Below, in pieces: positions 715-40,733 of a DNA stretch of 56,460 nucleotides (the stretch's first letter is position 1; every line of letters starts with the position of its first letter). The notes beneath the pieces were generated by a model. That model saw only the letters and a list, made by a program, of their open reading frames with translations, was not told where the DNA came from and made no database searches. The DNA lies in contig JBDKRC010000331.1 in NCBI GenBank assembly GCA_039683575.1, forward strand, positions 1 to 56,460. The letters run 5' to 3'. A program made the position numbers and the translations under genes. The stretch is from Armatimonadia bacterium (lineage in GTDB: Bacteria; Armatimonadota; Zipacnadia; Zipacnadales; UBA11051).

Positions 715-1745
715 ATACCGACACCATGACCCCCAAAGAGCGTTTCATGGCTTTCCTGAGCGGTCAGGAGACGGACAGGTTGCTGTGTGTGCCGCTGATC
801 CTCAACCATGCTGCCCATGCCGCCGGGATGACCGTCTCGCAGGCCCACCGCGATGGAGAGACGCTTGGGAAGGCCCACGCGGCCTCCTATCGCAAGTACG
901 GCCAGGACCTCATCACGATCTTCAGCGACACCTCGCTCATCGCGGAAGCCATGGGAACGAAGCTGTACTATAGCGAGGACGACGCCCCGCGCGTGCAAGA
1001 ACCGGCTGTGGTCGGACCGAATGACGCCGCAGGTATTGTGCCTCCCGATCCGCACCAGGACGGTCGCCTGCCGCACTACCTGGAGGCCATCCGCACGGCC
1101 AACCGCGAGGTCGGAGAGGAAGTCTTCGTTAGCTGCTGCTTCGCACTGCCTGTAACCATAGCAGCGGCGCTGCTCGGTACCGACATTTTCGTGAAGTCCC
1201 TGCGCAAGAACCCCGACCTCGCCCACCGACTGTTGAAGGTCTCGATGCAGGCCGCGCTGGACTTTGCCGATGCCGTCATCGAGGCCGGAGGCATCCCAGT
1301 GCCAGTGGACCCCGTGGCCTCCTGCAGCGTCATAGGGCCGCGGCAGTACGAGGAGTTCGCCGCACCTTACACGAAGCCCATCATTGAGCGCATCGCGCAG
1401 TCCGGCCTACCGCCTGTGTTGCATATCTGTGGCAGCAGCCACCTGATCTGGGGGCAGATGTGCGACACTGGCGCGGCGGTGCTCAGTCTCGACCGGGTGG
1501 ACCTGGCGGAGGCCAGCCGCAGCGTTGGAGAGCGCGTGTGCCTGCTCGGCAATGTGGCTCCGGCGGAGACACTGCTCTACGGCACACCGGAGACGGTGGA
1601 TGAGCAGACACGGATTTGCATCGAGAAGGGCGCGGGCAACCCCAAGGGCTACATTGTCGGCAGCGGGTGCGAGGTGCCGCTCAACACCCCGCCTGAGAAC
1701 ATCCACGCGATGATGAGCGCGGTGCGAAAGTACGGACGGAACTAG
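711..1745 (+). CDS. Uroporphyrinogen decarboxylase-family methyltransferase, MtaA/CmuA-like
   Basis: MTPKERF N-terminus, EAMG, DPVAS, Zn ligands LHICG and GSGCEV; ATGA overlap with the corrinoid gene. Confidence 0.85.
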   Translation: MNTDTMTPKERFMAFLSGQETDRLLCVPLILNHAAHAAGMTVSQAHRDGETLGKAHAASYRKYGQDLITIFSDTSLIAEAMGTKLYYSEDDAPRVQEPAVVGPNDAAGIVPPDPHQDGRLPHYLEAIRTANREVGEEVFVSCCFALPVTIAAALLGTDIFVKSLRKNPDLAHRLLKVSMQAALDFADAVIEAGGIPVPVDPVASCSVIGPRQYEEFAAPYTKPIIERIAQSGLPPVLHICGSSHLIWGQMCDTGAAVLSLDRVDLAEASRSVGERVCLLGNVAPAETLLYGTPETVDEQTRICIEKGAGNPKGYIVGSGCEVPLNTPPENIHAMMSAVRKYGRN

Positions 1746-1751
1746 ATCACC

Positions 1752-2792
1752 ATGACCCACAAACAACGCCTCCTGGCCGCGCTAAGCCGCGAGCCTGTGG
1801 ACCGCCCGCCGGTCATCTGCCCCGGCGGTATGATGTCCGCCGCCGTGGTCGAGGCCATGGAGCGCTGTGGCTACGCGTGGCCGCAAGCCCATGTAGAGGT
1901 CGAGGCCATGGCCGGGCTTGCCCTCGCCATGTACGACCTCGGAGCGCTGGAGAACCTTGCCGTACCCTTCTGCATGACCATCGAGGCGGAGGCGCTGGGG
2001 GCGCAGGTGAACCTCGGTGACCGAATCACGCAGGCGCGCGTGGACCAAGAGCCCTATCAGAGCGCGCTGGAATTGCTGGAGCAGGCCCATCCCCCTATCG
2101 CGGCCTCGCGTCGCGCGCAAGTCGTGCTGGCGGCCCTGGAACGGCTACTCGCGGAGCGGCCTGAGGCGCCGGTGATCGGCAACCTCGTCGGGCCTGTATC
2201 CCTTGCTACCTCTCTGGTGACGCCGGACGTCTTCCTCAAGCAGATGTTCCGCCAGCCAGAAGCGACGCAGGCGGCGCTGGAGCGCCTGACTGACCTGCTG
2301 CTGGCCTTCGGAGCGGAGCAGATCGCGAAGGGCGTCGAGGTCATCGCCATCGCCGACCCGACGGCCACAGGCGAGATTCTCGGCCCGCGCCTGTTCAGGA
2401 CACAAGCAGCGCCGGTGCTGGCGCGTCTGACGCGTGGCCTGCAAACCCTGGGCGCAAGGGTTATTGTGCATATCTGTGGAAATGTCCACACGATAGCCCC
2501 CCTGCTGGCCGAAATCGGAGCCAATGCCATCAGCGTTGATGACATGGTCGGCCTGCGCAAGCTGCGCGGGCAGGTTCCCAACGCCGCAGTGATGGGCAAC
2601 CTGTGCGCTCTACGGCTGCAGGAGGACCCACCAGAGAGCATCGCCAGTTGGGTCCAGCGTATTGGGCTGCGGCAGGCAGACATCATCGCTCCGGCGTGTG
2701 CGATGGTACCGACAACGCCACTGGCGAACCTGCAGGCACTGGTGCGCTCCGCCGCCGTCGTGTCCGATCCACAAGGAGGGGCCGAGCTTTAG
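1752..2792 (+). CDS. Second MtaA/CmuA-family methylcobalamin:acceptor methyltransferase
   Basis: VDRPPVICPGGMM, VPFCMTIEAEALG, ADPTATGEILGP, VHICG and IAPACAM motifs. Confidence 0.85.
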   Translation: MTHKQRLLAALSREPVDRPPVICPGGMMSAAVVEAMERCGYAWPQAHVEVEAMAGLALAMYDLGALENLAVPFCMTIEAEALGAQVNLGDRITQARVDQEPYQSALELLEQAHPPIAASRRAQVVLAALERLLAERPEAPVIGNLVGPVSLATSLVTPDVFLKQMFRQPEATQAALERLTDLLLAFGAEQIAKGVEVIAIADPTATGEILGPRLFRTQAAPVLARLTRGLQTLGARVIVHICGNVHTIAPLLAEIGANAISVDDMVGLRKLRGQVPNAAVMGNLCALRLQEDPPESIASWVQRIGLRQADIIAPACAMVPTTPLANLQALVRSAAVVSDPQGGAEL

Positions 2793-2860
2793 CCGGCCCG
2801 CCGTTATCACCGACCATCCACCACACCGCCACCACGGGCCGGCTGAAGCTCGGCCCCTCC
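2775..2860. repeat. Palindromic repeat doublet (family C, GGAGGGGCCGAGCTT..AGCCGGCCC) overlapping the methyltransferase stop codon
   Basis: Inverted pair at 2775-2799 and 2836-2860; near-identical copy at 47926-47967. Confidence 0.8.
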
Positions 2861-2883
2861 GAAGATTCGAAGAGGCGCTGCCC

Positions 2884-4317
2884 ATGACCAAACAGGAACT
2901 GCTGCGCAATCTGCCCTCGATAGACCGCCTCCTGAGCGACCCGCACGTTGCCTCGCTTGCCGAGGAACACGGCCATGAACTGGTCGTGTGGCTGCTGCGA
3001 CGCGAGTTGGAGGCACTGCGCGCGCGGATTCTGGGGGGCGAGGACGTCACTGATGTCGCAGCGACGGTCCTGCAGGCACTTGAGGCTTCGCTGCGACTTT
3101 CGTTACGCCATGCCGTGAATGCCGCGGGTGTGGTGCTTCACACCGGTCTCGGGCGCGCGATGCTGGCCCCGGCAGCCGTCGAGGCCGTGCATGACAGCAT
3201 TCGCGGATACTGCACTCTCGCCACCGACGCCGAGCAGGGCAAGCGGATGTCCCGCGATCAACACCTGAGGGACGTGCTCTGCGAACTCACCGGGGCTGAG
3301 TCCGGTACTTTCGCCAACAACAACGCCGCGGCGACCATGCTGGTGCTCAATACGCTCGCCCAGGGCAAGGAAGTCATCGTCTCGCGCGGGCAACTCGTCG
3401 AGATCGGCGGCTCCTTCCGCATGCCCGAGGTCATGGAAATGAGCGGGGCCACCATGCGCGAGGTAGGCACCACTAACAAGACGCACCTGAATGACTACGA
3501 GCGGGCCATCAACGAGAACACCGGCGCGCTTTTGCGTGTCCACCAGAGCAACTACCGCATCATGGGCTTCACTTCCGAGCCGGGGATCGAGGAACTGGTG
3601 GCGCTGGGCGACAAGCACGGCCTGCCGGTGATTGATGACCTCGGCAGCGGAGCACTGATTGACCTCAGCCAGTTCGGGCTGGAGCGCGAGCCACTGATCC
3701 AGGAGAGCGTCAGAGCCGGGGCGGCGGTGGCGTGCTTCAGCGGCGACAAGCTCATCGGCGGTCCGCAGTGCGGCATCATGGTCGGCAAGCGCGAGATCAT
3801 CGAGCGCATCAAGAAGAACCCTCTGGCCAGGGCGCTGCGCATCGGCAAAATGACTGTAGCGGCCCTGGAGGCCACACTGAGGCTGTTTCTCGATGAAGAC
3901 CACCTGTGCGAGAAGCACCCGACGTACCGCATGTTCTCGCTCCCGCTGGAGGGCTTGAAGGCACGCGCGGAGGCACTGGCGGCGAAAATGGGGACTGACC
4001 CCATTTTCACGATCAGCCATGAGGACGATGGTTCCCTTGCGCTGAAAATGGGGTCTGTCCCCGTTTTCGCTCTGCGCATCATCGAAAGCGAGACCGAAGT
4101 CGGCAGTGGCTCGGTGCCGACACAGACCCTCCCGACGTGGGCGGTAGCCGTGCAGCCGCAGGGCATGGCACCGGAAGAGCTGGCCCGTCGCCTCCGCTAC
4201 CACGAGCCGCCCATCTTTGCGCGCATCCACAGAGACAGTGTCCTGTTTGACCTGCGAACCATTCAGCCGGAGGAGGACGAACTGGTGGCGGCGGCTCTGC
4301 GGAGTGTACTGCAGTGA
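2884..4317 (+). CDS. selA: L-seryl-tRNA(Sec) selenium transferase
   Basis: LRNLPSID N-terminus, VNAAGVVLHTGLGRA, NNNAAA, SRGQLVEIGGSFRMP, EVGTTNKTH, PLP lysine motif FSGDKLIGGPQCG; start MTKQ at 2884. Confidence 0.97.
   Translation: MTKQELLRNLPSIDRLLSDPHVASLAEEHGHELVVWLLRRELEALRARILGGEDVTDVAATVLQALEASLRLSLRHAVNAAGVVLHTGLGRAMLAPAAVEAVHDSIRGYCTLATDAEQGKRMSRDQHLRDVLCELTGAESGTFANNNAAATMLVLNTLAQGKEVIVSRGQLVEIGGSFRMPEVMEMSGATMREVGTTNKTHLNDYERAINENTGALLRVHQSNYRIMGFTSEPGIEELVALGDKHGLPVIDDLGSGALIDLSQFGLEREPLIQESVRAGAAVACFSGDKLIGGPQCGIMVGKREIIERIKKNPLARALRIGKMTVAALEATLRLFLDEDHLCEKHPTYRMFSLPLEGLKARAEALAAKMGTDPIFTISHEDDGSLALKMGSVPVFALRIIESETEVGSGSVPTQTLPTWAVAVQPQGMAPEELARRLRYHEPPIFARIHRDSVLFDLRTIQPEEDELVAAALRSVLQ
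3984..4068. repeat. In-frame palindromic doublet inside selA (GAAAATGGGG-N5-CCCCRTTTTC, twice)
   Basis: gaaaatgggg actga ccccattttc at 3984-4008 and gaaaatgggg tctgt ccccgttttc at 4044-4068, 60 nt apart; translated as KMGTDPIF and KMGSVPVF. Confidence 0.8.
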
Positions 4318-5882
4318 TTGATCCCGAAAAGCGCCGCCGCGTGATGGAGCGCTCCATTGCCCTCGGCCACTGTATCTGCAACCCCAAGAAGCCCTGCCCG
4401 TGCGATCTGTTCGCCGAGCGGGACCTCTGCCTCTGCGCCGGTGAGCGGCCCGAGGATGCCCCCGAGACCGTCGCGCTGACTTCCCTCGTAAAGAACGCGG
4501 GTTGTGCCTCGAAGATCAACCAGAACGACCTCAAGCGCGCCCTCGGGGACCTGCCGCAGATCAGCCACCCACGGGTGCTGGTGGGCTCGAATACTGGCGA
4601 TGACGCCGGCATCTACCAGCTCAATGATGAACTCGCACTCGTGCAGACCGTGGATGTCTTCACCCCCGGCGTGGACGACCCCTACACCTTCGGCCAGATC
4701 GCAGCGGCCAACTCCCTGAGCGATGTCTACGCCATGGGCGGCCAGCCCCTGACGGCGCTGGCGATCATCGGCTTCCCTATCGAGAACCTCAGCCCGCGGA
4801 TCATGACCCAGATCATGCGGGGGGGACAGGACAAGATGCAGGAGGCGGGCGTGCCCATCGTCGGCGGGCATAGCATCAACGACCTCGACGTGAAGTTTGG
4901 CTTCTCCGTGACGGGGCAGGTCCATCCGCAGCGCATCGTCACCAATGCCACGGCCCAGCCGGGCGATTCGCTGATCCTGACCAAGCCCCTCGGCGTGGGC
5001 ATCATCAGCTTTGCGGCTCAGCTAGACCGCGCTACGGCCCAGGCAATGGATGCTGCGGCCTATTCAATGAAAACCTTAAATAGATTCGCCGCCGAGTTGA
5101 TGATCGAGCACGGCGTGCGCTGTGGCACGGATGTGACCGGCTTCGGGCTGCTGGGACACCTCAGCGAAGTGGCGCGGCAGAGCGGCGTCACGGCCGAGGT
5201 CTGGGCAGATCGGGTACCGATGTTTGACGAGGCACTTCAATACGCCCGTGAGGGCCTGCTCTCAGGGGCCATGGAGCGCAACCGCGAGTATGCGGGGCAG
5301 TTCGTGCAGGTGGCGCCGGGTGTGGCCGAGGAGCGCGTGAACGTGTTGTACGACCCGCAGACCTCAGGCGGGCTGCTGATGGCGGCCCCGCCGGACGTGG
5401 CGGAGGAGATAGTCCGACGCCTGCACGAGGCGGGCCAGACGACGGCAGCGATCATCGGGCGCATTACCGAGCAGTCGGAGGGCAAGATCGTGATCAAGAA
5501 CGAGGGCGAGCAGGAAAGCTGCTGCTGCAGCGCGGCGGCTGAGAGTTGCTGTGAGGATGAGCCAGTCGAGGAGCCCTGCTGTGCCGAGGGGAGCCCCTGC
5601 TGCGCCGGAGGCGGCGGCGAGTCGAGCCTTACCAGCATCCGCGAAGCTTTCGGGGCGTTCATGGGCGAGGTGAACTCGCCGGGGGCGCTGGGGCTGCGGG
5701 AGAAGGAACTCGTCTCGGTGGCGCTGTCGGTGCTGTCGAAGTGCGAGCCCTGCGTGAAGATCCACGTGAAGAAGGCGTGCGAGGCGGGGCTGACGCAGGC
5801 GGAGGTTGACGAGGCGGTGTGGATGGCGATCGCCTTCGGCGGGGCCCCGACTATGATGTTCTACAACGGCATCCGGAAGTAA
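4314..5882 (+). CDS. selD: Selenide, water dikinase (Cys form) with a Cys-rich N-terminal extension, a poly-Cys linker and a C-terminal AhpD/CMD-like domain
   Basis: AGCASK active site, DDAG, QTVDVFTP, FGQIAAANSLSDVYAMGG, LTKPLG, TDVTGFGLLGH, DPQTSGGLL; C-terminal KELVSVALS..KCEPCVKIH is CMD-like. Confidence 0.95.
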   Translation: MIDPEKRRRVMERSIALGHCICNPKKPCPCDLFAERDLCLCAGERPEDAPETVALTSLVKNAGCASKINQNDLKRALGDLPQISHPRVLVGSNTGDDAGIYQLNDELALVQTVDVFTPGVDDPYTFGQIAAANSLSDVYAMGGQPLTALAIIGFPIENLSPRIMTQIMRGGQDKMQEAGVPIVGGHSINDLDVKFGFSVTGQVHPQRIVTNATAQPGDSLILTKPLGVGIISFAAQLDRATAQAMDAAAYSMKTLNRFAAELMIEHGVRCGTDVTGFGLLGHLSEVARQSGVTAEVWADRVPMFDEALQYAREGLLSGAMERNREYAGQFVQVAPGVAEERVNVLYDPQTSGGLLMAAPPDVAEEIVRRLHEAGQTTAAIIGRITEQSEGKIVIKNEGEQESCCCSAAAESCCEDEPVEEPCCAEGSPCCAGGGGESSLTSIREAFGAFMGEVNSPGALGLREKELVSVALSVLSKCEPCVKIHVKKACEAGLTQAEVDEAVWMAIAFGGAPTMMFYNGIRK

Positions 5883-5888
5883 AGTCAT

Positions 5889-6010
5889 CGCGTGGGAGGC
5901 ATGCTCCGCATGCCGGACTCAGTGAGCATGTTCCGGCACACGAGGTGTGCCTACCACGCGGAGAGATGGAAAGAGACGAGTTCCGGCATGCGGAGCATGC
6001 CTACCACGCG
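5889..6010. repeat. Palindromic repeat cluster (family D) between selD and selB
   Basis: cgcgtgggaggcatgctccgcatgccgga ... tccggcatgcggagcatgcctaccacgcg inverted arms with a degenerate internal copy. Confidence 0.7.
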
Positions 6011-6021
6011 AAGAGGAAACA

Positions 6022-7929
6022 ATGCCAGACGAACTCCAACAAATCATCATCGGCACCGCCGGGCACATTGACCACGGCAAGACCGCGCTCGTGAAGGCGC
6101 TGACCGGCGTGGATGCCGATACGCTTGAGGAGGAGAAGCGGCGCGGGATCACCATCGAGCTTGGGTTCGTATTCATGCCTCAGGCTGCCGGGGATGACAG
6201 GCAGATCGTCTTCATAGACGTGCCCGGCCACGAACGGCTGGTCAAGACGATGGTTGCCGGGGCGAGTAACCTTGACGCCGTGATGCTGATCGTCGCGGCT
6301 GATGAGGGCGTTGCGGCACAGACTCGTGAGCATTTTGACATTCTCAAGCTCCTGGGCATGACGCGGGGGCTGGTGGCGCTGACTAAGGTGGACCTCGTGG
6401 ACGAGGCGCGGCGCGAGCAGGTCACGAACGAGGTCAGAGGCTACCTCAGCGGCAGCTTCCTTGCGGACGCGCCTATCACGCCGGTCTCGGCGGTCACCGG
6501 CGAGGGCGTCCAGGAGCTGCGGACGGCGTTGCAGGCGCTGGCGGCGACCGTTGAGCCGCGGACGGACAGCGGCGTGTTCCGCATGCCTGTGGACCGTGTC
6601 TTTACCATGCATGGTTTTGGCACGGTGATCGCCGGGACGGTGCTGGCGGGGTCAGTGCGGGTGGGCGACCAGGTGGAGATACTTCCGGAGGGGTTGCGGA
6701 CACGCGTACGGGGCATACAGGTGCATGGGGCGAAGACAGAGGTGTCGGGGCTGGGAGCGCGGACGGCGCTGAATGTGCCGGATGTGAAGAAGGAGGACCT
6801 GCGGCGGGGCCAGACGGCAGCGGCGCCGGATTCGCTCAAGCCCACGCAGCGCCTCGACGCCCAGCTATACCTGTTGCAAACCGCAGACGAACTCAAGCAC
6901 CGGGCGCGGTTGCGGCTGCACATCGGCACCGACGAAGTCATCGCACGCGTGGCACTGCTCGATCGCGAGCGGCTCCTTCCGGGCGAGACAACCACCGTGC
7001 AGTTCATCCTTGAAGCCTCAACCGTGGCCGTGCCGCGCGATCGCTTCGTGGTGCGTACCTTCTCGCCGCTGCAGACCATTGGCGGCGGGACGATCCTCGA
7101 TGCCCACCCAGAGAAGCACAAGCGGTTCGATGAGGACGCGCTGGAGGGGCTGACCCAGCTTGAGGGCGACCTCGGGCAGGTGATCGCGCAACAGGCTCTG
7201 AAGGCCGGAGCGGTGCCGCAGAAGCTGGCCGACTTCGTTGCCGCTACGGGAGCGGGTGAGCCGGAGGTGGCTGCAGCGGTCGCTCAGCTTGTTGAGGCGG
7301 GGCGACTGGCAGCGGTGCGAGAGGACTATCTCCATGCAGAAGTGCTCGAGGACCTCGCAAGCAAGCTCCACCATGCCTTCGCCGTCTACTACCAGAGAAG
7401 CCCGCAGAAGCTCTGGATGCCGCTGTCGGACCTGCAGGCGCAGGCGGCGAAGCTGATGCCCAAGCCGGTCTGGGAGGCGCTCTTCAGGCAGATGGTGACT
7501 GAGGGGACGCTCGTGCGCAAGGAGCAGCGCGTGCGGCCTGCTGACCGGCAGGTAGAGCTCAAGCCTCAGGAGCAGGAGTGGGCCGAGCGGGTAGCCAGGG
7601 CATACCAGGCTGCGGCATTCTCAACCCCTTCAGAAGAGGAAGTGCGCGCGGAACTGAAAATCCCCGAGGCGGCGTTTGCAGGTGTAATGACCGCGCTGAC
7701 GGAACAAGAGACCCTCATCCGCGTCAGTGACAAAGTCATCTACCATGTCGAGCCGCTGAATCAGCTTCGCGAGAAGGTAGCGGCACTGATTCGCGAGCGA
7801 GGCAGCATGACGGTGGCGGAGTTGCGTGACGAATTGGGTATCTCGCGCAAGTACGCGCTGGCAGTGATGGAGTACTTTGACGCAGTGGGGCTGACGAGGC
7901 GCGAGGGGGACGCGCGGGTGTTGGCGTAG
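6022..7929 (+). CDS. selB: Selenocysteine-specific translation elongation factor
   Basis: [37 protein letters not shown]-domain motifs; C-terminal SECIS-binding winged helix [14 protein letters not shown]. Confidence 0.97.
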
Positions 7930-7940
7930 AGACGGCTCTG

Positions 7941-8019
7941 CTGTAGGGCGGGGGCTCGTACCCCGCCGGCCGTCGTCCACGATCACCCGAGCGGCGGGGT
8001 ACAAGCCCCCGCCCCACAG
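7941..8019. repeat. GTAG-type REP doublet (family A)
   Basis: ctgtagggcgggggctcgtaccccgccg ... cggcggggtacaagcccccgccccacag inverted pair. Confidence 0.85.
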
Positions 8020-8035
8020 CCCGAGTGCGGCAGAC

Positions 8036-8131
8036 GGAGGAGTCAGGGTTCCGGTGGGCCTCCTGGGCTTCAAACCCAGTGTGGGGCTCGAGAGAGTCCC
8101 GGGTGGGTTCGACTCCCACACTCCTCCGCCA
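8036..8131 (+). tRNA. selC: tRNA-Sec (anticodon UCA)
   Basis: 8-bp acceptor stem GGAGGAGT/ACTCCTCC, anticodon arm CTGGG-CT-TCA-AA-CCCAG (TCA at 8070-8072), long variable arm, T arm GTGGG-TTCGACT-CCCAC, G discriminator then CCA; lies directly after selB. Confidence 0.97.
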
Positions 8132-8191
8132 GATTCAGTGGTCAGTTGGCAGTGGTCAGTTAACGGCGGGAGGCAAAGGCAAGACAAAGGC

Positions 8192-8221
8192 AAACGCCCG
8201 ACCATTGGCCGGGCGTTTTTT
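8192..8221 (+). terminator. Rho-independent terminator between selC and the convergent gene, probably bidirectional
   Basis: AAACGCCCG-accattggc-CGGGCGTTT followed by a T run. Confidence 0.8.
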
Positions 8222-8233
8222 GGTTCTTTGAGT

Positions 8234-8252
8234 AGCGCGCGCACGGCGCGCT
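8234..8252 (-). promoter_or_regulatory. Candidate bacterial SECIS hairpin for the TGA at 8270-8268
   Basis: Minus strand AGCGCGC-CGTGC-GCGCGCT; the stem starts 15 nt and the loop 22 nt after the TGA; GU at loop positions 2-3; distinct from the terminator. Confidence 0.55.
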
Positions 8253-8255
8253 GGG

Positions 8256-8657
8256 TTACTTGCCCCCTCACCCACCGGTCTTCGGCTTAGTAATGAGGAC
8301 TGTGCTGGTTGGGGCTTCCCACTTCACACCGCAGCCCAACCGAGTGCTCATCAGGCGTAGCGGCAGGTAGATGCTGCCGCCAATCGTGAGCCCCTCGGAT
8401 CCGGAGATACGGGCGATTTTACCACACAGGACCACAGTCGCAGATTTGGTGTTGGGGTTCCACTTCACGCTGCCGCCCAGAGCCTGAACTCCGCTGCGCA
8501 GTGGGACATATGTCGTGCCGGCGCGCTCTATGGCTGGCGGAGTGACCGTCACCGCCTTGCCGTCGACATTCATCTTCACCGGCTTGTCAGCAGCCTGTGC
8601 GCCTGCAACGACCACGAGCAACGCGAGCAGCACCAATACCGGCATGAGGCTTTTCAT
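8256..8657 (-). CDS. Exported copper-amine-oxidase N-terminal (stalk) domain protein; predicted selenoprotein ending GG-U-GGK
   Basis: Signal peptide; GTTYVPLR..LGGSVKWN and IYLPLR..LGCGVKWE stalk motifs; the ORF-track stop TGA (8270-8268) is followed by GGG GGC AAG TAA. The domain call is firm, the Sec readthrough is inferred. Confidence 0.7.
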
Positions 8658-8793
8658 GGCGTTACCTCGAACGGATATGCCTTGTCATTCTTAGCGAAGC
8701 GGGTAATCTCCAAGGCATCTTACCAAATGACATGGACTTATACAACCCGCCAGAGTTCGGTTCGTTCCCCAGGAGGAAGAAGATGATGAAGAA

Positions 8794-8819
8794 GGAACCT
8801 TGAGGATGCGCATTTGTCA
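8794..8819 (+). promoter_or_regulatory. Possible ECF sigma-factor promoter
   Basis: GGAACC-N16-GTCA, 45 nt upstream of the ATG at 8865. Confidence 0.3.
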
Positions 8820-8864
8820 GCTATATGTATGCCTTGATGAGTCGCTTGCTGGGAGGGGCCGACC

Positions 8865-10631
8865 ATGCATCGGAAAGCGTTTGTGCTCGTGCTGCTGGCC
8901 GTCTTGACTGCCTGCCTTGCCTATGCCGCTCCTGCCCCTCCTCCCGCACCTCCCCCTCCCGGATACGGGCCCGGAGGCCCCAAAGGCGCCCTGTCCCCCT
9001 CCGGCATAGCCGGGACTGTCGTGAACGCCGCTGGCCAGCCACTCGCCGGCGTGACGGTCTTCAACAACGGCGATGGCCCAGTGGAGCTCAAGGCCCGAAC
9101 CGATGCGGCCGGGCGGTTCCTGCTCAAAGGCTTCGTTCTGACCCCGGGGGCGTTTGTCTTTGTGGAGCAGCCGTGCTACCACTTCTACGGCGGGTACTTC
9201 AGCCTCGGGACCAAGGACGCGAAGATCGTCCTCACTCCCGCCGATGGGCAGCGTCCGGCCGTGACGTTGCAGCCCCAGCGCGAGGATCTCGAGTATCGCC
9301 GCGAACTGGCGCAGAAGCTTGTGGACAAGGGCATGGCCCTTATCAAGAGCGATCCCAAGGACCCGAACTACCTTCTCCTCGCGTACGCGGCAATACAGCT
9401 CGACCCCACCAAAGCCCCTACACTGACCTCCGACCCGCTCAAGCGGCGCACACTCTTCCTGCTGATTGACCGCCTAAGCGACTTGGCCCCCGAGGAAGTC
9501 ATCCAGTCCACGAGCCAGTACAACCGTTGGACCGCCATGTACTACCTGCTGAAGTGGTCGCGGCGGCCGGAGGTGCGCAAGAACCCTGCGGTCGAGGCGC
9601 AGATGCTGCAGGAGGTCATCACCTTCAGCCGCGATGACGAGCCGAGAGTGTTGCAGGCACTGACTTACCGGACGGAGGCGGCAGGACGCCTGCTCGAACT
9701 TGGCTACCCCGAGGCGCGGCAGGTGCTCGACCGCGACTTGCCGCTCGTATCGAAGCTGCCGTTCAGCCTGGACGACTACGAGACGGCACGGGTGGTGATG
9801 GTCTTCGCCCAGGCGTACTACCTCGTGGACCCGGAGAAGGCACTGGCGCTGGTGAAGGGCCCGGCGAACTCACCGTACAATCTGGAAGACATGACGCGAC
9901 AGAAGCTGGGGGTGCGGCGGGCGCGGAAGGACCCCGATGAGGGGCTGAGGGTGTACCCCAGGCGGAGCGCCAACGAGCCGCAGCAACTCAGCGACATCGC
10001 AATGGCAGCGGCCATCGCCGAGACCGATCCGGCTCGCGCCGAGGCTTTTGCGCGAGAGATCGCGGATGCCCAGGTGAAGGCGCTGGCGTTGGGTGAAGTC
10101 GCGGCCGCCCTGATACCGACCGATCGGGAGCGGGCACGCAAGCTGTTTGGCGAGGCGTACCAGATGATGAGCGCCAAGTCCGCGGGGGAGCAACGCGGGT
10201 ATTTCACGCCCGGGCTGATGCTGGCCTCATTGGCGGTCATGATGCGCGATGCCGATCCCGCGATGGCCTACGAGGCGATGATGCGGGGCCTGTCCCGGCG
10301 GTCGCCGGTGGGCAGGAACCCGAACGACGAGTACATGACTTCCGTTCTGGTGCAGGCCGCGCAGAAGGTGGACGCGCCGACGGCGCGGCGGCTGCTGCGG
10401 CTGCCGGAGGACCCCAGCGCCGACCAGGTCATGGCGCTGACGAGAGACAGTTGGGCCTACCCGGGGCTGGCGGCGGATGTACTGTTGGAGGCAAGCCAGG
10501 CGGCCGGGAACGAGGGCCTCAATGCGAGCGTGTATGGCCAGATGACGATGCAATTGCTGCGGGACGAGGCCTTCCAGTGGACGTACTTCGCGGGCGACTG
10601 GACGCAGTACCTGAGTGATTCGTACGAGTGA
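8865..10631 (+). CDS. Exported protein: Pro-rich linker, carboxypeptidase-regulatory-like domain, alpha-helical solenoid C-terminus
   Basis: GGAGG RBS, signal peptide, PPPAPPPP, IAGTVVNAAGQPLAGVTV..TDAAGRF motif, then Ala/Leu-rich helical repeats. Confidence 0.8.
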   Translation: MHRKAFVLVLLAVLTACLAYAAPAPPPAPPPPGYGPGGPKGALSPSGIAGTVVNAAGQPLAGVTVFNNGDGPVELKARTDAAGRFLLKGFVLTPGAFVFVEQPCYHFYGGYFSLGTKDAKIVLTPADGQRPAVTLQPQREDLEYRRELAQKLVDKGMALIKSDPKDPNYLLLAYAAIQLDPTKAPTLTSDPLKRRTLFLLIDRLSDLAPEEVIQSTSQYNRWTAMYYLLKWSRRPEVRKNPAVEAQMLQEVITFSRDDEPRVLQALTYRTEAAGRLLELGYPEARQVLDRDLPLVSKLPFSLDDYETARVVMVFAQAYYLVDPEKALALVKGPANSPYNLEDMTRQKLGVRRARKDPDEGLRVYPRRSANEPQQLSDIAMAAAIAETDPARAEAFAREIADAQVKALALGEVAAALIPTDRERARKLFGEAYQMMSAKSAGEQRGYFTPGLMLASLAVMMRDADPAMAYEAMMRGLSRRSPVGRNPNDEYMTSVLVQAAQKVDAPTARRLLRLPEDPSADQVMALTRDSWAYPGLAADVLLEASQAAGNEGLNASVYGQMTMQLLRDEAFQWTYFAGDWTQYLSDSYE

Positions 10632-10670: not shown

Positions 10671-10754
10671 TGTCATCCTGAGCGGCGGACGTCCACGTCC
10701 GCAAGCGAAGAGTCTCCGCCACCGCGGGGATGCTTCACTTCGTTCAGCATGACA
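10671..10754. repeat. TGTCATCCTGAGCG...CAGCATGACA palindromic element (family E)
   Basis: Same terminal motifs as copies at 46919-46998 and 47055-47139; degenerate copy at 8683-8731. Confidence 0.8.
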
Positions 10755-10786
10755 GACTTTGGGCTCATTCAATCGGGGGTCACACA

Positions 10787-12133
10787 ATGCGCAAGTACAT
10801 CTGGCTGGCTGTACTGACGGTCTCGGCGGCGCAGGCTGCCGGGTTGCGGTTTGTGGACCAGTGGGAGCGCGATGGGCTCCCGGTGGTGCCCACAAATATC
10901 CTGAACCTCTATGCACAACCGCCGGAGAAGTTCGCATCGCTCCCGCCGGACGCCCCGGCCCAGCGGTACACCCTCTGCTGGCCCATCGGCGCGGGGCAGG
11001 CGGCCGCTGCCCCTGACAAGGACCGCTGGATGAGCTTCATGATGGACGCGGACCCCGCGCATCGGGAGTTCCTGTGGGTTGACACCAATCGCAACTGGGT
11101 CTTCGAGCCGGGCGAGAAGTACGCGCTGGGCGACCTGAAGTGGGGCGACAAGACCATTCGCGGCTTCGAGACCCCAATCGACATCGGCGGTGAGCCGGCG
11201 ACGCGCACGCTGCGGGTGTGGCTCGGGACGTTCCCCGGTACGCTGCTCGTGTCGCTCAGGGGCTACTGCGCCGGGACCGTGGAGCTAGGCGGCAGAGAGG
11301 TCGCAGCGTTGCTGGCCGATGCCGACATGGACGGCCGCTTCGCTACCCTCGGCCGGGACCTGATCTTCCTCGACCTGGACGGCAACGGCAAGTACTTCAT
11401 CGCCACCGAGCGCTACCCGCTGGCCGAGAAGCTGCGGCTGGACGGCAAGACGTACGCAATGCAGTACTCACCCAATGGTGCCAGCGTCGCCGCAACTGAG
11501 ACGTATCTCGGGCAGGGGACGGTGCGCTTTGCGCTCAAGGGTGCGGGCAACAAGCCAGTGATGGCGACGTTGCGGCGTGATGACGGTGAGGTGGTGGCGG
11601 CGGGCAAGCTGGGCGAGCCGGTGACGGTGCGTGAGGGTACATGGACCATGTTCACGCTTGCGAACCTGCGGATGCAGGAGGGCGCGCGGACGTGGTCTTA
11701 CAGCTTCAGCCGCCACTCCGGTGAGTTATCGAACCTCTCGCCGTTGGTAGTCAAGCCGGGGCAGGAGACCACGTTTGACCTGCTCGGGCCGATCAAGCTG
11801 ACCATGAACGGAGTGCAGGCCACAGCGAAGCCGGGGGATCAGGTGAATGCTCAGGTGGGCTTCACGAGCGCGACGGGAATGGACGTGCGGTCGCAAAGCA
11901 GCGGACCGAGCACGCGCGACTCCGATGAGCCGAAACTAGAACTGAAGCTACTGGACGGCAAGTTTGCAGTTAGGGCGCAGGGCCGCATGGGCTTTGGGTG
12001 AGGCGGCGGGTGCAGTGGCTCCCTGGCGTTGCCAGCGGACTTGAAGCCGGGCAAGTACCATGTAGTCGCACTGATACCGACGGGCCCCCTCGCGGGGACA
12101 CTGCGGGCGGAGACGGCGGTGGAGGTGAAGTAG
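10787..12133 (+). CDS. Exported 448-aa predicted selenoprotein with a C-terminal U-G-G-G-C motif
   Basis: Signal peptide MRKYIWLAVLTVSAAQA; DxDxDG-like Ca-binding motifs; in-frame TGA at 11999-12001 followed by 43 codons (GGGCSGSLALPADLKPGKYHVVALIPTGPLAGTLRAETAVEVK), TAG at 12131-12133, then a terminator. Confidence 0.85.
12020..12039 (+). promoter_or_regulatory. Candidate bacterial SECIS hairpin for the TGA at 11999-12001
   Basis: TCC-CTGGC-GTT-GCCAG-c-GGA; the apical loop begins with GU, 27 nt after the TGA. Confidence 0.7.
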
Positions 12134-37188: not shown

Positions 37189-37811
37189 GGCCCGGGATTG
37201 AAATCCCGGCCTAAGGAGATGAGCGTCCCTCCGGGACGCGGGAGGGGAGGGATGCGTCATACTCGGGAGGGGGTTCCCACGCAGAGTGAGTCTTACCGCC
37301 GCTGTGATGTTCTTCCTGGCGGGCCACGTACTTCATGACGTTCTGTAGGTGCGAGCGGCTGAGGCTGAAGACGCCGTAGCCGGGCTGCCAGTAGAAGCCG
37401 GGCTGCCCCAGTTGCTCCTTGGCGAAGAGGGAACTGACAGCCTTCACTTGTTTCGCCACTTGGGCCGGCGCGATGTCGGTCGGCGCTTGTACGACAAGGT
37501 GGACATGATCGTCAACTCCGCCGATAGCAAGGGCCTTACACCCCATTTGGGTAGCCTGATCTACGATGCAATTGTGCAGACGCCTCCGGACCTCGCACGT
37601 GATCCAGGGCAAGCCGCCTTTGGTGCCCCAAACGAAGTGGAAGTACAGTTCGGCTTTGGTGTCCGACATGTGGTGGGCCCCCGTGTTGGCTGACCGGGGT
37701 TGAAACCCCGGCCTGATGAATGAGCGTCCCTCCGGGACGCAGGAACTACGGCGGGAAATCTCGCGTCCCGGAGGGACGCTCATGCACTAGACCGGCATTT
37801 CAATGCCGGGC
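37189..37811. mobile_element. IS200/IS605-type tnpA flanked by three copies of a ~47-nt palindrome-bearing repeat (REPtron-like)
   Basis: Unit CCGGG.TTGAAA.CCCGG..ATGAGCGTCCCTCCGGGACG at 37189-37238 and 37694-37739 (direct), inverted copy at 37764-37811. Confidence 0.8.
37211..37669 (-). CDS. tnpA: Y1 HUH tyrosine transposase (IS200-like)
   Basis: LYFHFVWGTK, HUH motif DHVHL, KAVSS, FYWQPGYGVFS, catalytic YVARQEEHH; start MSDT at 37669; no tnpB. Confidence 0.92.
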   Translation of the reverse strand: MSDTKAELYFHFVWGTKGGLPWITCEVRRRLHNCIVDQATQMGCKALAIGGVDDHVHLVVQAPTDIAPAQVAKQVKAVSSLFAKEQLGQPGFYWQPGYGVFSLSRSHLQNVMKYVARQEEHHSGGKTHSAWEPPPEYDASLPSRVPEGRSSP

Positions 37812-37916
37812 TGGCGACGTAGTAGTGTTCATTCCCCTCTCCCACCCAACCTCCACACAAAGGACTACCCGGCCCTCAAGACCAATACTCCACCAGTCTG
37901 AGACAGGAGGCTCAAC

Positions 37917-40733
37917 ATGCGTCAGGCCTTCGTTCTGTTCACACTCCTGGCAGCACTCACTGCTGCGCACGCCCAGATCGTTGCCGACAAGCTCTATGTC
38001 TCCCCCCAGGGCCGCGACACCTGGTCAGGGACCCTCGCCGCGCCCAACGCCGCCAAGACCGACGGTCCCCTCGCCACCGTCACCGCCGCCCGCGACGCCG
38101 CCCGCAGACTGCATGCGCGACTGGGGACAACGAAACCAGTCGCCGTCGTCATCCTCGGCGGCACCTACCGCATGGCCGAGCCCCTCGTGCTCACCCCCGA
38201 AGACTCCTTCGTGGCCTATCAAGCCTATCCCGGCCAGAAAGTGGTCCTGAGTGGCGGCCTCCCTGTGACCGGATGGCAGCCGGCTGAGGGCAAGCTCTGG
38301 CGGGCCACCATTCCAGCCGCTGCCAACCGCCAGTGGCAGTTCCAGCAACTCTTCGTCAATGGCCAGCGCCGCCTCCGCGCCCGCACTCCCAACCTCGTCA
38401 AGCCCACGCCCACAACGCCCCTCGGTGACACCACCGGCTACTTCGTCACCGCTGGCAAGGCTCCGCCGCTCGTGGACGCCGCCGGCAAAGAGACATCTCA
38501 AGACAGCATCGCCTTCCGCTTCAAGGAAGGCGACCTCAAGAACTGGCCCAACCTCAGCGATATCCAGGTCAGCGTCTATCACTCCTGGGAGACTTCACGC
38601 CACCGCCTTGCTTCAGTGGACGAGGCTAATCGCGTCGTCACCTTCACCGGCAAAGCCGTCTGGCCTTTTGAGCGCTGGGGGCCTAAGCAGCGCTACTTCG
38701 TTGAGAACCTCCCCGAGGCCCTCGACGAGCCCGGCGAATGGTACTTGGACTGCGCCACGGGCGTCCTCAGCTACTGGCCGCTGCCCGGCGAAGACCTTCG
38801 ACAGGCCGAGGTCATCGCCCCCAGGCTCACCCGCCTCGTCGAACTCCGTGGCGACGCCCGTCTCGGCCAGTGGGTCGAGGGCGTCAGCTTCACCGGCCTG
38901 ACCTTCGGCCATCAGGACTGGGAACTGGAGCCCCAGGGCCACAGCGACGCTCAGGCTACCGTCACCGCCCCAGCCGCGATCATGGCTGATGCCGCCCTGA
39001 ACTGCACCTTCAAGGAATGCGACCTCAGCCACGTCGGCTCCTATGGCCTGTGGCTCCGCGCCGGCTGCAAGAACAACCTCATCGAGGGCTGCCGCATCCA
39101 CGACCTCGGCGTCGGCGGTATCCGCATCGGGGAAGCCCAAATGCCGCCCTCCGACGAGATAACCAGCAGCGGAAACACCGTCCGCAACTGCCACCTCTTC
39201 GACGGCGGCCACGTGTACCCCGCGGGGCATGGGATCTGGATCGGCCAGAGCTTCGGTAACCTCATCGCCCACAATGAGATCCACGATTTCAACTACTCCG
39301 GCATGTCCGTCGGCTGGAACTGGGGCGACAGCCCGACGCGGACTCATGACAACATCATCGAGTACAACCACGTCCACCACTGCATGAATCACCAGCTTAA
39401 CGACGGCGGTGCCATCTACTGCCTCGGCACTTCCCCCGGCAGCATCATCCGCAACAACGTCTTCCACGACATCTGGCCGTTCAGCGGCATCGGCTGGGGC
39501 ATCTACCTCGACGCGACAACCAGCCAGTACCTCGTCGAGAACAACGTCGTCTTCAACACCCTCAGCGGCGACCTGATGTACAACAACGGCGGGCACGAGC
39601 ATGTCATCCAGAACAACATCTTCGGCCCCTGCGCCCAGCAGCAGCTCTGGCCGTACTGGGAGAAGCGGATCAACACCTTCCGCCGCAACCTCATCTACTT
39701 CACGGAGAGCGACCTGTTCATCCCCTTCTCAGAAGGCAGTCTCCGCCAGCGCCTAGAGGCCAACGAGACCCCGGCCGTCTGGGATGAGAACCTCTACTGG
39801 AACCCCGAGCAGCCGGACATCAAGTTCTACGGCTACGACTTCGCCCAATGGCAGAAGCTCGGTCTCGACACCAAGTCGCTCGTTGCTGACCCGCAGTGGA
39901 TCGGCACTGGACCGCACGGCTTCCCCGTCCCTGCGCTGTACCCGGACAAGCCCGGCCAGACGCTCTTCCCCGTCTTCAAACCATCCTCCCCTGCGCTCAA
40001 GCTGGGGATCAAACCCATTGACACCTCGACCGTCGGCATCCAGGCTCCTGCTTCCCTCGTAGCCGAAGCCCGCGCGGTCAAGCATCCCGCGACGGTCTTC
40101 CCGGCTCCCCCGCCTCCTCCTTCACCCACGTCAGTGGACGACGGGTTTGAGATGGCCACGGTAGGCGCCGAGCCTGAGGGGGCTAACGTGAATGGCGAAG
40201 AGGGCGGGGCCTCGATCCGCGTGACGGCGGAGCAGGCAGCCACCGGCCGTCATTCGGCTAAGTTCATCGATAGCCCCGCCGCCCAGCCATCCTGGCAGCC
40301 ACACATGTTCTACCAGCCGCACTTCAAGACCGGCCTCATTCGCGAGAGCTTCGACATCTACCTCGAGCCCCTGGCTCTGATGTACACCGAGTGGCGTGAC
40401 ACCACCCCCTACCCCGCCAACGTCGGACCCAATGTCACCTTTGACGCATCGGAGGGACAGGCGGCTAAGGTGATCGTCAACCAAAACGCCATCACCACCG
40501 TTCCCCTCAGCCAGTGGATCCATGTCGAGATGGAAACCCGCCTCGGCAAGGACGCCCCAAAGACATGGAAGCTCACACTGCAAACCCCCGGCCAGCAGCC
40601 CTGGGTCAGCACCAACATCCCCTATGGCGGCGACCGCTTCGCTGAGGTACACTGGCTCGGCTTCGTCAGCACCGCCACCGTCAAGTCAGTCTTCTATGTT
40701 GACAATGTGAAGATCGCTCAGATTGAGAAGTGA
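37917..40733 (+). CDS. Exported right-handed parallel beta-helix protein (GH141-like) with a C-terminal beta-sandwich
   Basis: AGGAGG RBS, signal peptide, YVSPQGRDTWSG..DGPLAT, QLFVNG..RARTPN, LDEPGEWY, DGGAIY, GWGIYLD. Confidence 0.8.
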   Translation: MRQAFVLFTLLAALTAAHAQIVADKLYVSPQGRDTWSGTLAAPNAAKTDGPLATVTAARDAARRLHARLGTTKPVAVVILGGTYRMAEPLVLTPEDSFVAYQAYPGQKVVLSGGLPVTGWQPAEGKLWRATIPAAANRQWQFQQLFVNGQRRLRARTPNLVKPTPTTPLGDTTGYFVTAGKAPPLVDAAGKETSQDSIAFRFKEGDLKNWPNLSDIQVSVYHSWETSRHRLASVDEANRVVTFTGKAVWPFERWGPKQRYFVENLPEALDEPGEWYLDCATGVLSYWPLPGEDLRQAEVIAPRLTRLVELRGDARLGQWVEGVSFTGLTFGHQDWELEPQGHSDAQATVTAPAAIMADAALNCTFKECDLSHVGSYGLWLRAGCKNNLIEGCRIHDLGVGGIRIGEAQMPPSDEITSSGNTVRNCHLFDGGHVYPAGHGIWIGQSFGNLIAHNEIHDFNYSGMSVGWNWGDSPTRTHDNIIEYNHVHHCMNHQLNDGGAIYCLGTSPGSIIRNNVFHDIWPFSGIGWGIYLDATTSQYLVENNVVFNTLSGDLMYNNGGHEHVIQNNIFGPCAQQQLWPYWEKRINTFRRNLIYFTESDLFIPFSEGSLRQRLEANETPAVWDENLYWNPEQPDIKFYGYDFAQWQKLGLDTKSLVADPQWIGTGPHGFPVPALYPDKPGQTLFPVFKPSSPALKLGIKPIDTSTVGIQAPASLVAEARAVKHPATVFPAPPPPPSPTSVDDGFEMATVGAEPEGANVNGEEGGASIRVTAEQAATGRHSAKFIDSPAAQPSWQPHMFYQPHFKTGLIRESFDIYLEPLALMYTEWRDTTPYPANVGPNVTFDASEGQAAKVIVNQNAITTVPLSQWIHVEMETRLGKDAPKTWKLTLQTPGQQPWVSTNIPYGGDRFAEVHWLGFVSTATVKSVFYVDNVKIAQIEK

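Follow-up and report, generated by a model that had tools for sequence, protein, structure and literature searches.

We describe a short gene in a stretch of 56,460 nucleotides (nt) of DNA from an Armatimonadia bacterium (contig JBDKRC010000331.1, hereafter the window). The gene lies on the minus strand and encodes a protein with the N-terminal 'stalk' domain of copper amine oxidases. As called, the open reading frame (ORF; 8657..8268) starts with ATG at 8657 and gives 129 amino acids (aa) up to a TGA codon. The DNA at the 3' end of the gene reads, in frame, AAG ACC GGT GGG TGA GGG GGC AAG TAA. An earlier note, made from the sequence alone, had pointed to this ending as a possible site of selenocysteine (Sec) insertion. 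The Sec reading gives the protein the C-terminal tail KPKTGG-U-GGK. The relevant features are as follows.

8256..8657, minus strand: coding sequence (CDS) of the stalk-domain gene under the Sec reading, 133 codons plus stop, translated with TGA as U
8268..8270, minus strand: UGA, predicted to be read as Sec (residue 130); TGA is invariant in 11/11 tail-bearing loci and the next stop is variable
8256..8258, minus strand: predicted true stop TAA, after Gly-Gly-Lys, from the in-frame translation
8234..8252, minus strand: candidate Sec insertion sequence (SECIS) hairpin AGCGCGC-CGTGC-GCGCGCT, in the 3' untranslated region (UTR); it fits the bSECIS model and covaries
8192..8218, minus strand: intrinsic-terminator-like hairpin and T run, distinct from the SECIS hairpin and 16 nt further on

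The stalk gene and its 3' region

The candidate SECIS has a stem of 7 base pairs (bp; 8252-8246 with 8240-8234) and a loop, CGUGC (8245-8241), that begins 22 nt past the UGA. Both the gene end and the 7-bp hairpin at 8252-8234 are present in the sequence as the earlier note had described them. That note also placed a separate terminator at 8192-8221; the terminator is indeed separate, but it occupies 8218-8192. Contigs from the metatranscriptome libraries of one study match positions 8253-8548 (10 differences) and 8439-8658 (0 differences), which is no demonstration of transcription. These contigs stop short of the hairpin at 8234-8252 and are uninformative on it either way.

The protein matches the Pfam family Cu_amine_oxidN1 (PF07833) with 58.7 bits (gathering cut-off 24.2, E 6.2e-16), in agreement with the domain named at the outset in the note. 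The precursor contains two Cys residues, C78 and C109, also as noted. By eye, approximately residues 1-22 form a hydrophobic, signal-peptide-like N-terminus (...AGAQA followed by ADKP). An envelope-anchored protein had been proposed. The N-terminus supports export, and the protein is probably exported. Anchoring was not borne out, as reading the window protein sequence revealed no lipobox or anchor.

An AlphaFold2 model of the window protein, made with a 39-row alignment, has a mean pLDDT of 89.4. Residues 124-133 have no secondary structure in this model, where pLDDT is down to 51 at the C-terminus. Foldseek ranked a Synechocystis hypothetical protein first. Ranks 2-10 were E. coli amine oxidase chains (root-mean-square deviation 1.9-2.3 Å, probability 0.99-1.0, weak E values of 0.06-0.2), and the model superposed on amine oxidase chains with a deviation of 1.9 Å across 74 columns. 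By Pfam and by the model and Foldseek, the domain corresponds to the N-terminal stalk of E. coli copper amine oxidase (PDB 1OAC and others). Conversely, the window protein is a stand-alone domain with a predicted Sec tail and lacks the oxidase body.

Conservation of the tail, the hairpin and the decoding machinery

Homologues were sought in the order (67 genomes), the class (79 genomes) and a 401-genome sample of the phylum, and in metagenome contigs. Eleven loci bear the tail: the window, L040, L041, L017, L021, L012, L018, L053, L054, L055 and L101. Their sources are nine Armatimonadota genomes and, for L040 and L041, two metagenome contigs. The order, class and phylum searches gave no orthologue closer than these two. 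The further eight loci, from the genome searches, have 29-43% protein identity. The ten relatives are listed with their source, 3' end and hairpin or loop.

L040, metagenome contig, 86% identical: ...ITGG TGA GGG GGC TAA; GGCGCGC-CGTGC-GCGCGCT
L041, metagenome contig, 64% identical: ...TAGG TGA GGG GGC TAA; GGCATGC-CGTGC-GCATGTC
L017, genome G002, same genus: ..GSAGG TGA GGG GGC TAG; GGCCTGC-CGTGC-GCAGGCC
L021, genome G004: ..VPVPT TGA GGG GGG TAG; loop CGGGT
L012, genome G027: ..NCAPSG TGA AGG CCC TGA; loop AGTTT
L018, genome G022: ..NCGPSG TGA GGC GTG CGG TAG; loop AGTTG
L053, genome G408: ..RCSAPG TGA TAG; loop CGTAG
L054, genome G424: ..NCYG TGA GGC TAG; loop AGGTT
L055, genome G404: ..PCAIGGG TGA CAC TAA; loop AGGTT
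L101, genome G368, A+T-richer: ..PPAASG TGA GGA ATA TAA; AGTATGC-CGTGC-GCATGCT

The first stop is TGA in all 11 loci. The second in-frame stop lies 0-3 codons beyond and is TAA (five loci), TAG (five) or TGA (one). Read with Sec, the tails are GG-U-GGK, GG-U-GG (three times), PT-U-GG, CAPSG-U-RP, CGPSG-U-GVR, CSAPG-U, CYG-U-G, CAIGGG-U-H and ASG-U-GI. Gly precedes Sec in 10 of the 11. Exactly two residues follow Sec in six loci (L040, L041, L017, L021, L012 and L101), three follow in the window (GGK), and 0, 1 or 3 in the rest. A Cys residue 2-5 positions ahead of Sec (C-x2-5-U) occurs only in L012, L018, L053, L054 and L055. The earlier note had proposed comparing the stop codon and the next codons among relatives ending in GG. 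In all four GG-U-GG genes with DNA sequence (window, L040, L041 and L017) TGA GGG GGC is kept, and the true stop is TAA or TAG.

Seven close protein clusters (57-95% identity) end ...KP[KI]TGG as called. Among 37 small stalk-domain cluster representatives (P0008-P0154), 14 end Gly-Gly and 3 end (A/V)PVPT. As far as they go, P0022 and P0044 are very similar to L053 and L055, which have the Sec tail, and they were probably cut at a Sec codon in annotation. Two relatives bear the NCBI name 'copper amine oxidase N-terminal domain-containing protein [Armatimonadota bacterium]'; the L021-type form, 163 aa long and cut at the TGA, is one such entry. In the class of G424, a search of 53 genomes matched just the three carriers already known. 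A general scan of genome contigs gave distant relatives only (24-43% identity; Paenibacillus, Eubacterium and Syntrophomonas), uninformative on the tail. An unrooted maximum-likelihood tree was built for 48 small family members. Genes with the Sec tail fall in four clusters near its midpoint root, and three state changes between Sec tail and none are required. The tree is compatible with a single origin of the tail; as it is unrooted, we claim no direction from it.

Across the tail-bearing loci the hairpin has a stem of 6-7 bp and a loop of 5 nt. The loops are CGUGC (five times), CGGGU, AGUUU, AGUUG, CGUAG and AGGUU (twice); all 11 have G at the second position, then G or U. The loop starts 18-24 nt past the UGA (ten loci computed, L101 by eye). 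As outlined in PMC13188914, the bSECIS model places the element 16-37 nt from the UGA and has a G among the first two nucleotides of the loop, often with G or U next; all 11 hairpins conform to that outline. The stem also covaries, as the earlier note had suggested examining: 98.6% of 70 cells pair, five of the seven pairs have double changes, and none of 500 shuffles reaches the score. Control frames slid along the alignment pair in 21-56% of cells. RNAalifold, run on a TGA-anchored MAFFT alignment, recovers the same helix.

We searched for such hairpins with a detector that takes a 7-position stem with six inner pairs intact and a 5-nt loop with G at its second position, the loop starting 18-24 nt past the stop. 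The detector was applied to 48 small stalk loci. This set omits long or multidomain matches (L003-L006, L019, L027 and L029-L031), distant matches from other lineages (L036-L039 and L042-L047), L051 (no stop within the piece) and L058 (a duplicate of L032). Ten loci were positive, all ten after TGA and all ten with 0-3 extra codons. Conversely, there were no positives among 22 loci that end with TAA or TAG, 10 TGA-terminated loci in genomes without SelB, or 6 other TGA loci in SelB-positive genomes. A second in-frame stop no more than 3 codons away was present in 10/10 hairpin-positive loci and 2/38 negatives. A SECIS model (R1) built from the other ten loci gave L101, which was found afterwards, 26.9 bits (E 7e-4); among 41 tail-less loci the maximum was 15.1 bits.

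The window also carries a full set of genes for Sec synthesis and insertion, which adjoins the stalk gene.

2662..4317, plus strand: selA (Pfam SelA E 1.6e-142; Se-cys_synth_N)
4314..5882, plus strand: selD fused to a C-terminal carboxymuconolactone decarboxylase (CMD, AhpD-like) domain (TIGR00476, 387 bits)
5947..7929, plus strand: selB (GTP_EFTU, Beta-barrel_SelB, SelB-wing_2, SelB-wing_3)
8036..8131, plus strand: tRNA-Sec, selC (RF01852, 73.7 bits), convergent with the stalk gene

The convergence on tRNA-Sec had been noticed before and holds at these coordinates. The tRNA-Sec gene is also found beside the stalk gene in L040, and these two, the window and L040, are the only ones of the 11 tail-bearing loci where the stalk gene adjoins sel genes. 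SelB (PF09107) is present in 23 of the 67 genomes of the order. It is present in 9/9 tail-carrier genomes (G000, G002, G004, G022, G027, G408, G424, G404 and G368), where carriers other than the window's genome were scored on SelB alone. G368, the genome of the prospective L101, was scored for SelB only once its tail was known, and was then positive. Three genomes with tail-less stalk relatives (G200, G241 and G074) are without SelB.

Two further observations concern this region. The SelD protein is a single 522-aa ORF, in which AIRS and AIRS_C domains precede the C-terminal AhpD-like domain. Upstream of selA, positions 40-2792 of the plus strand encode a corrinoid (B12-binding) protein and two URO-D-family proteins; the layout is that of a corrinoid-dependent methyltransferase system.

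A second family in the same genome provides a positive control. Contig C343 carries tandem genes at 224-1012 and 1114-1932 (both minus strand; loci L071 and L092) with the sequence [FY]G-TGA-GGC GGC. Approximately 40 further codons follow the UGA, and the peptide context is [FY]G-U-GG...YSVR. A query with a C343 gene gave nine matches, each with a single in-frame TGA, in six genomes, every one of them SelB-positive; the relatives are loci L093-L100. In three genomes the gene shares a contig with selB. The family has no Pfam or NCBIfam match. A hairpin, GUACUC-CGUGC-GAGUAC, lies 17-20 nt past the UGA in the ten copies aligned, with the loop CGUGC in seven, CGUGA in two and CGGGC in one. Coding sequence remains conserved past the UGA, which puts read-through in this family beyond doubt. 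The family is unrelated to the stalk protein, its Sec is internal and its SECIS lies inside the coding sequence. Like the stalk gene, it has G-U-GG, a UGA GGN GG context, the CGUGC loop and a signal-peptide-like start, and it occurs only in SelB-positive genomes. Thus, the lineage decodes UGA with exactly the loop, stem length, spacing and UGA GGN GG context of the stalk gene.

Decoding of the UGA and competing explanations

Taken together, the invariant TGA, the variable true stop and the covarying stem support what the earlier note had proposed: a near-terminal Sec with a SECIS wholly beyond the true stop. We consider it very probable that the stalk gene encodes a genuine selenoprotein and that its UGA is decoded as Sec. 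SelB with Sec-tRNA(Sec) would bind the 7-bp hairpin with the CGUGC loop in the 3' UTR behind the UGA. The ribosome at the UGA (8270-8268) would then insert Sec, add Gly-Gly-Lys and end at the TAA. The predicted product is an exported Cu_amine_oxidN1 domain of ~110 residues with the disordered tail KPKTGG-U-GGK. We infer the decoding step from comparative evidence.

Several observations weigh against this reading and favour, in part, an ordinary stop, where the protein would end ...KPKTGG and the hairpin would have another role in the 3' UTR (in mRNA stability, as part of termination or as the site of a regulator). The fold of the window hairpin is unexceptional alone: for a 46-nt piece z = -0.98, and 31 of 200 shuffled versions do equally well. 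Nor did an Rfam search of 7800-8900 (E <= 10) give a SECIS family; it gave tRNA-Sec and chance matches only. In the G+C-rich genome of the window (63.5% G+C), the detector fires after 56 of 8421 TGA, 43 of 6785 TAG and 20 of 1967 TAA codons that close ORFs of at least 100 aa, and so hairpins of the same geometry follow 0.6-1.0% of long ORFs. Taken alone, the hairpin and tail of the window are not above chance, and the earlier note was right to warn that so short an extension arises easily. Only by comparing the sequences of relatives do we place the combination far above chance.

Other points on the same side concern the family. Public annotation closes the protein at the TGA, and some relatives genuinely end with GG and an ordinary stop. 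Mixed stop codons after GG had been raised as a possible objection; they are absent from the four GG-U-GG genes but present in less close relatives, L011 and L028, which end GG then TAG or TAA and have no hairpin. Because of these two, a GG ending by itself is taken as no sign of Sec. The GGCGG variant that the earlier note had suggested seeking was not encountered among the seven close clusters and 37 small representatives. No Cys homologue aligned at the Sec position was found in the stalk family; those that come closest are P0049, with the ending GQGCCG, and L013, from a genome without SelB and with a longer tail (...PPCEDAC..., C-x3-C). The frames for the detector and for covariation were set after the first examples had been seen, and L101 is the only prospective case. 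The carrier genomes are related to each other, and the counts are not independent. Finally, a model made from the internal-Sec family only (R2) found one significant stalk locus, L040 (20.2 bits, E 6e-4). R2 scores at the correct site fell short of significance in L041 (9.7 bits), L021 (8.1), the window (6.4) and L017 (5.9), and off-site matches in tail-less loci reached 9.6 bits. As support for the stalk SECIS, this cross-detection is weak at best.

An ordinary stop nevertheless leaves much of the pattern without an explanation. The element occurs only after TGA (0/22 TAA or TAG loci) and only in SelB-positive genomes (9/9), and an in-frame stop always follows within 0-3 codons. The loop and spacing are those of the SECIS in the internal-UGA family. 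A separate terminator-like hairpin lies 16 nt beyond. We therefore regard an ordinary stop as improbable. Sec might also be inserted only rarely. The truncated 129-aa form would then predominate, and the UGA and SECIS would act mainly as a selenium-responsive switch between two isoforms or mRNA fates. In favour of this, release factor competes at a UGA three or four codons ahead of a stop, the truncated form would still be a complete domain, and the stalk gene is convergent with tRNA-Sec. Conversely, proximity to sel genes is confined to 2/11 loci, and the Cys kept alongside Sec in the C-x2-5-U subfamilies points to selection on the chemistry of the tail. A switch of this kind seems very improbable to us.

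Related genes, known tails and possible functions

The genome contains other candidate Sec genes. In the window, 2 kb from the stalk gene, a 423-aa ORF (10730-12133, plus strand) ends ...GRMGFG at a TGA (11999-12001). Past the TGA it continues as GGGCSGSLALPADLKPGKYHVV... for 43 more codons, to a TAG at 12131-12133. It has a signal-peptide-like start, the GFG-U-GG motif in common with the C343 family and, by eye, a CTGGC-GTT-GCCAG hairpin after the UGA; its protein has no Pfam family. From its sequence, this gene is a probable second selenoprotein. On contig C302, positions 37599-39230 of the minus strand (locus L070, 1000-2631) hold a 541-aa ORF, counted from the first start codon, the C-terminal part of which looks like H-X9-DG-type proteins by eye. 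It ends ...MPGGG TGA GGC GGC TAA, followed by GGTCTCC-CGGTG-GGAGATC, and is the second-best R1 match in the genome after the window (25 bits, E 0.1). As a family feature its GGG-U-GG tail was rejected; it was seen in 0 of 15 related loci read and is a singleton. Nine other R1 matches in the genome are not in credible ORFs. Tails of similar shape on contigs C243, C321 and C62 were judged spurious, on a composition like that of antisense reading. A genome-wide search for internal Sec, filtered on third-position G+C content (GC3), gave 80 candidates, nearly all of them off-frame artefacts. A search with PF00384 (Molybdopterin-oxidoreductase) found no formate-dehydrogenase-type selenoprotein in the genome; other classic selenoprotein families were not searched. 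The sole PF00384 match has no in-frame stop within the matched part.

The window hairpin can be compared with the consensus bacterial SECIS (bSECISearch; E. coli fdhF type). It is likewise a stem-loop with G in the loop, and its distance from the UGA is within 16-37 nt. It differs in lying wholly in the 3' UTR, in having no bulged U that we could see, and in matching no Rfam SECIS. The closest tails that we found are those of the UXX-star and GUXX-star families, which PMC13188914 gives, together with KCU-star, as Sec, a few residues, then stop. The UXX-star and GUXX-star entries in the table of that review are NF041114, NF041211 (motif GxGU) and NF041212. As tabulated there, these proteins share with the stalk tail a Sec 2-3 residues before the stop, a Gly ahead of it and routine truncation by gene callers; because Sec is so close to the stop, their SECIS must sit behind the stop codon. 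Compared with these tabulated families, the stalk family differs in its Cu_amine_oxidN1 domain, its apparent export and its occurrence in Armatimonadota. An NCBIfam 20.0 hmmscan (E <= 0.01) gave no family for the window protein (U as C), P0039, P0031 or P0050, which places the stalk protein outside the named star families. By analogy, the stalk tail may work as UXX-star tails do, on a new, non-enzymatic and exported domain.

Mammalian thioredoxin reductase has a flexible C-terminal tail, Gly-Cys-Sec-Gly, and had been invoked as a parallel. A Gly-flanked Sec on a flexible C-terminal tail is indeed common to both, and the C-x2-5-U subfamilies could form a selenenylsulfide. The chemistry does not carry over: GG-U-GG has no Cys next to Sec, and so the stalk tail is not of the thioredoxin reductase type. 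It also has no flavoenzyme body and looks exported. SELENOK and SELENOS are eukaryotic membrane proteins in which a disordered, Gly-rich C-terminus carries Sec a few residues from the end, in a non-enzymatic scaffold. The likeness is one of layout; their fold is unrelated and their SECIS is eukaryotic. For rat thioredoxin reductase, Sec was reportedly inserted in E. coli with a SECIS of bacterial type engineered beyond the stop codon.

A stalk selenoprotein family was not found in the literature searched; the family lists in the supplementary tables of BSepDB and deep-Sep could include it. The terms amine oxidase, stalk and Armatimonad are absent from the main texts of PMC13188914, BSepDB (PMC13326102) and deep-Sep (PMC12013277), and PF07833 is absent from those of PMC13188914 and deep-Sep.

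The tail, if it carries Sec, would present an exposed selenol outside the cytoplasm. Such a group could form reversible Se-S bonds or bind soft metals or metalloids. In the C-x2-5-U subfamilies an intramolecular selenenylsulfide could join Sec to the tail Cys. For the GG-U-GG type, an Se-S bond would have a Cys of the domain (C78 or C109) or another protein as its partner. From these sequences we suggest, with considerable doubt, that the tail is a redox or tethering arm. Equally tentative is a role for the Sec as a ligand of soft metals or metalloids (Cu, Hg, As or Zn). In its favour, the protein appears to be exported and the C-x2-5-U tails are reminiscent of short chelating motifs; PMC13188914 gives metal binding as a possible role of Sec, as a ligand, in the UXX-star, SaoB and SaoC families. 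Conversely, no metal-handling genes are seen beside the stalk gene; around it are the sel operon and the genes of a CarboxypepD_reg-like protein and the probable second selenoprotein.

It is conceivable, though we hold it only loosely, that G-U-G-G is a portable module specific to this lineage, and that the Sec machinery is kept chiefly for exported, non-enzymatic proteins with Gly-flanked, exposed selenols. The set would comprise the stalk proteins, those with [FY]G-U-GG (among them the window gene 2 kb from the stalk gene) and, perhaps, the H-X9-DG-like protein with GGG-U-GG.

If Sec decoding is correct, it adds a selenoprotein family built on a non-catalytic, probably exported domain that is clipped in public annotation, and many database entries would be short by a few residues. 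Catalogues of bacterial selenoproteins are mainly built from Cys/Sec alignment pairs or from a SECIS inside the CDS. The stalk tail would escape both approaches: its predicted Sec is three residues from the stop, a Cys homologue was not found and its candidate SECIS is in the 3' UTR. The gene would also be a compact natural case of a bacterial SECIS that acts from behind the stop codon. Furthermore, it would offer a possible purpose for the sel operon in a genome where a formate-dehydrogenase-type selenoprotein was not found. Were the G-U-G-G proteins to form such a set, they could tether envelope proteins outside the cytoplasm through covalent Se-S or Se-Se bonds, or capture soft metals or metalloids there. 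The selenoproteome would then be centred on extracellular chemistry rather than on cytoplasmic redox enzymes.

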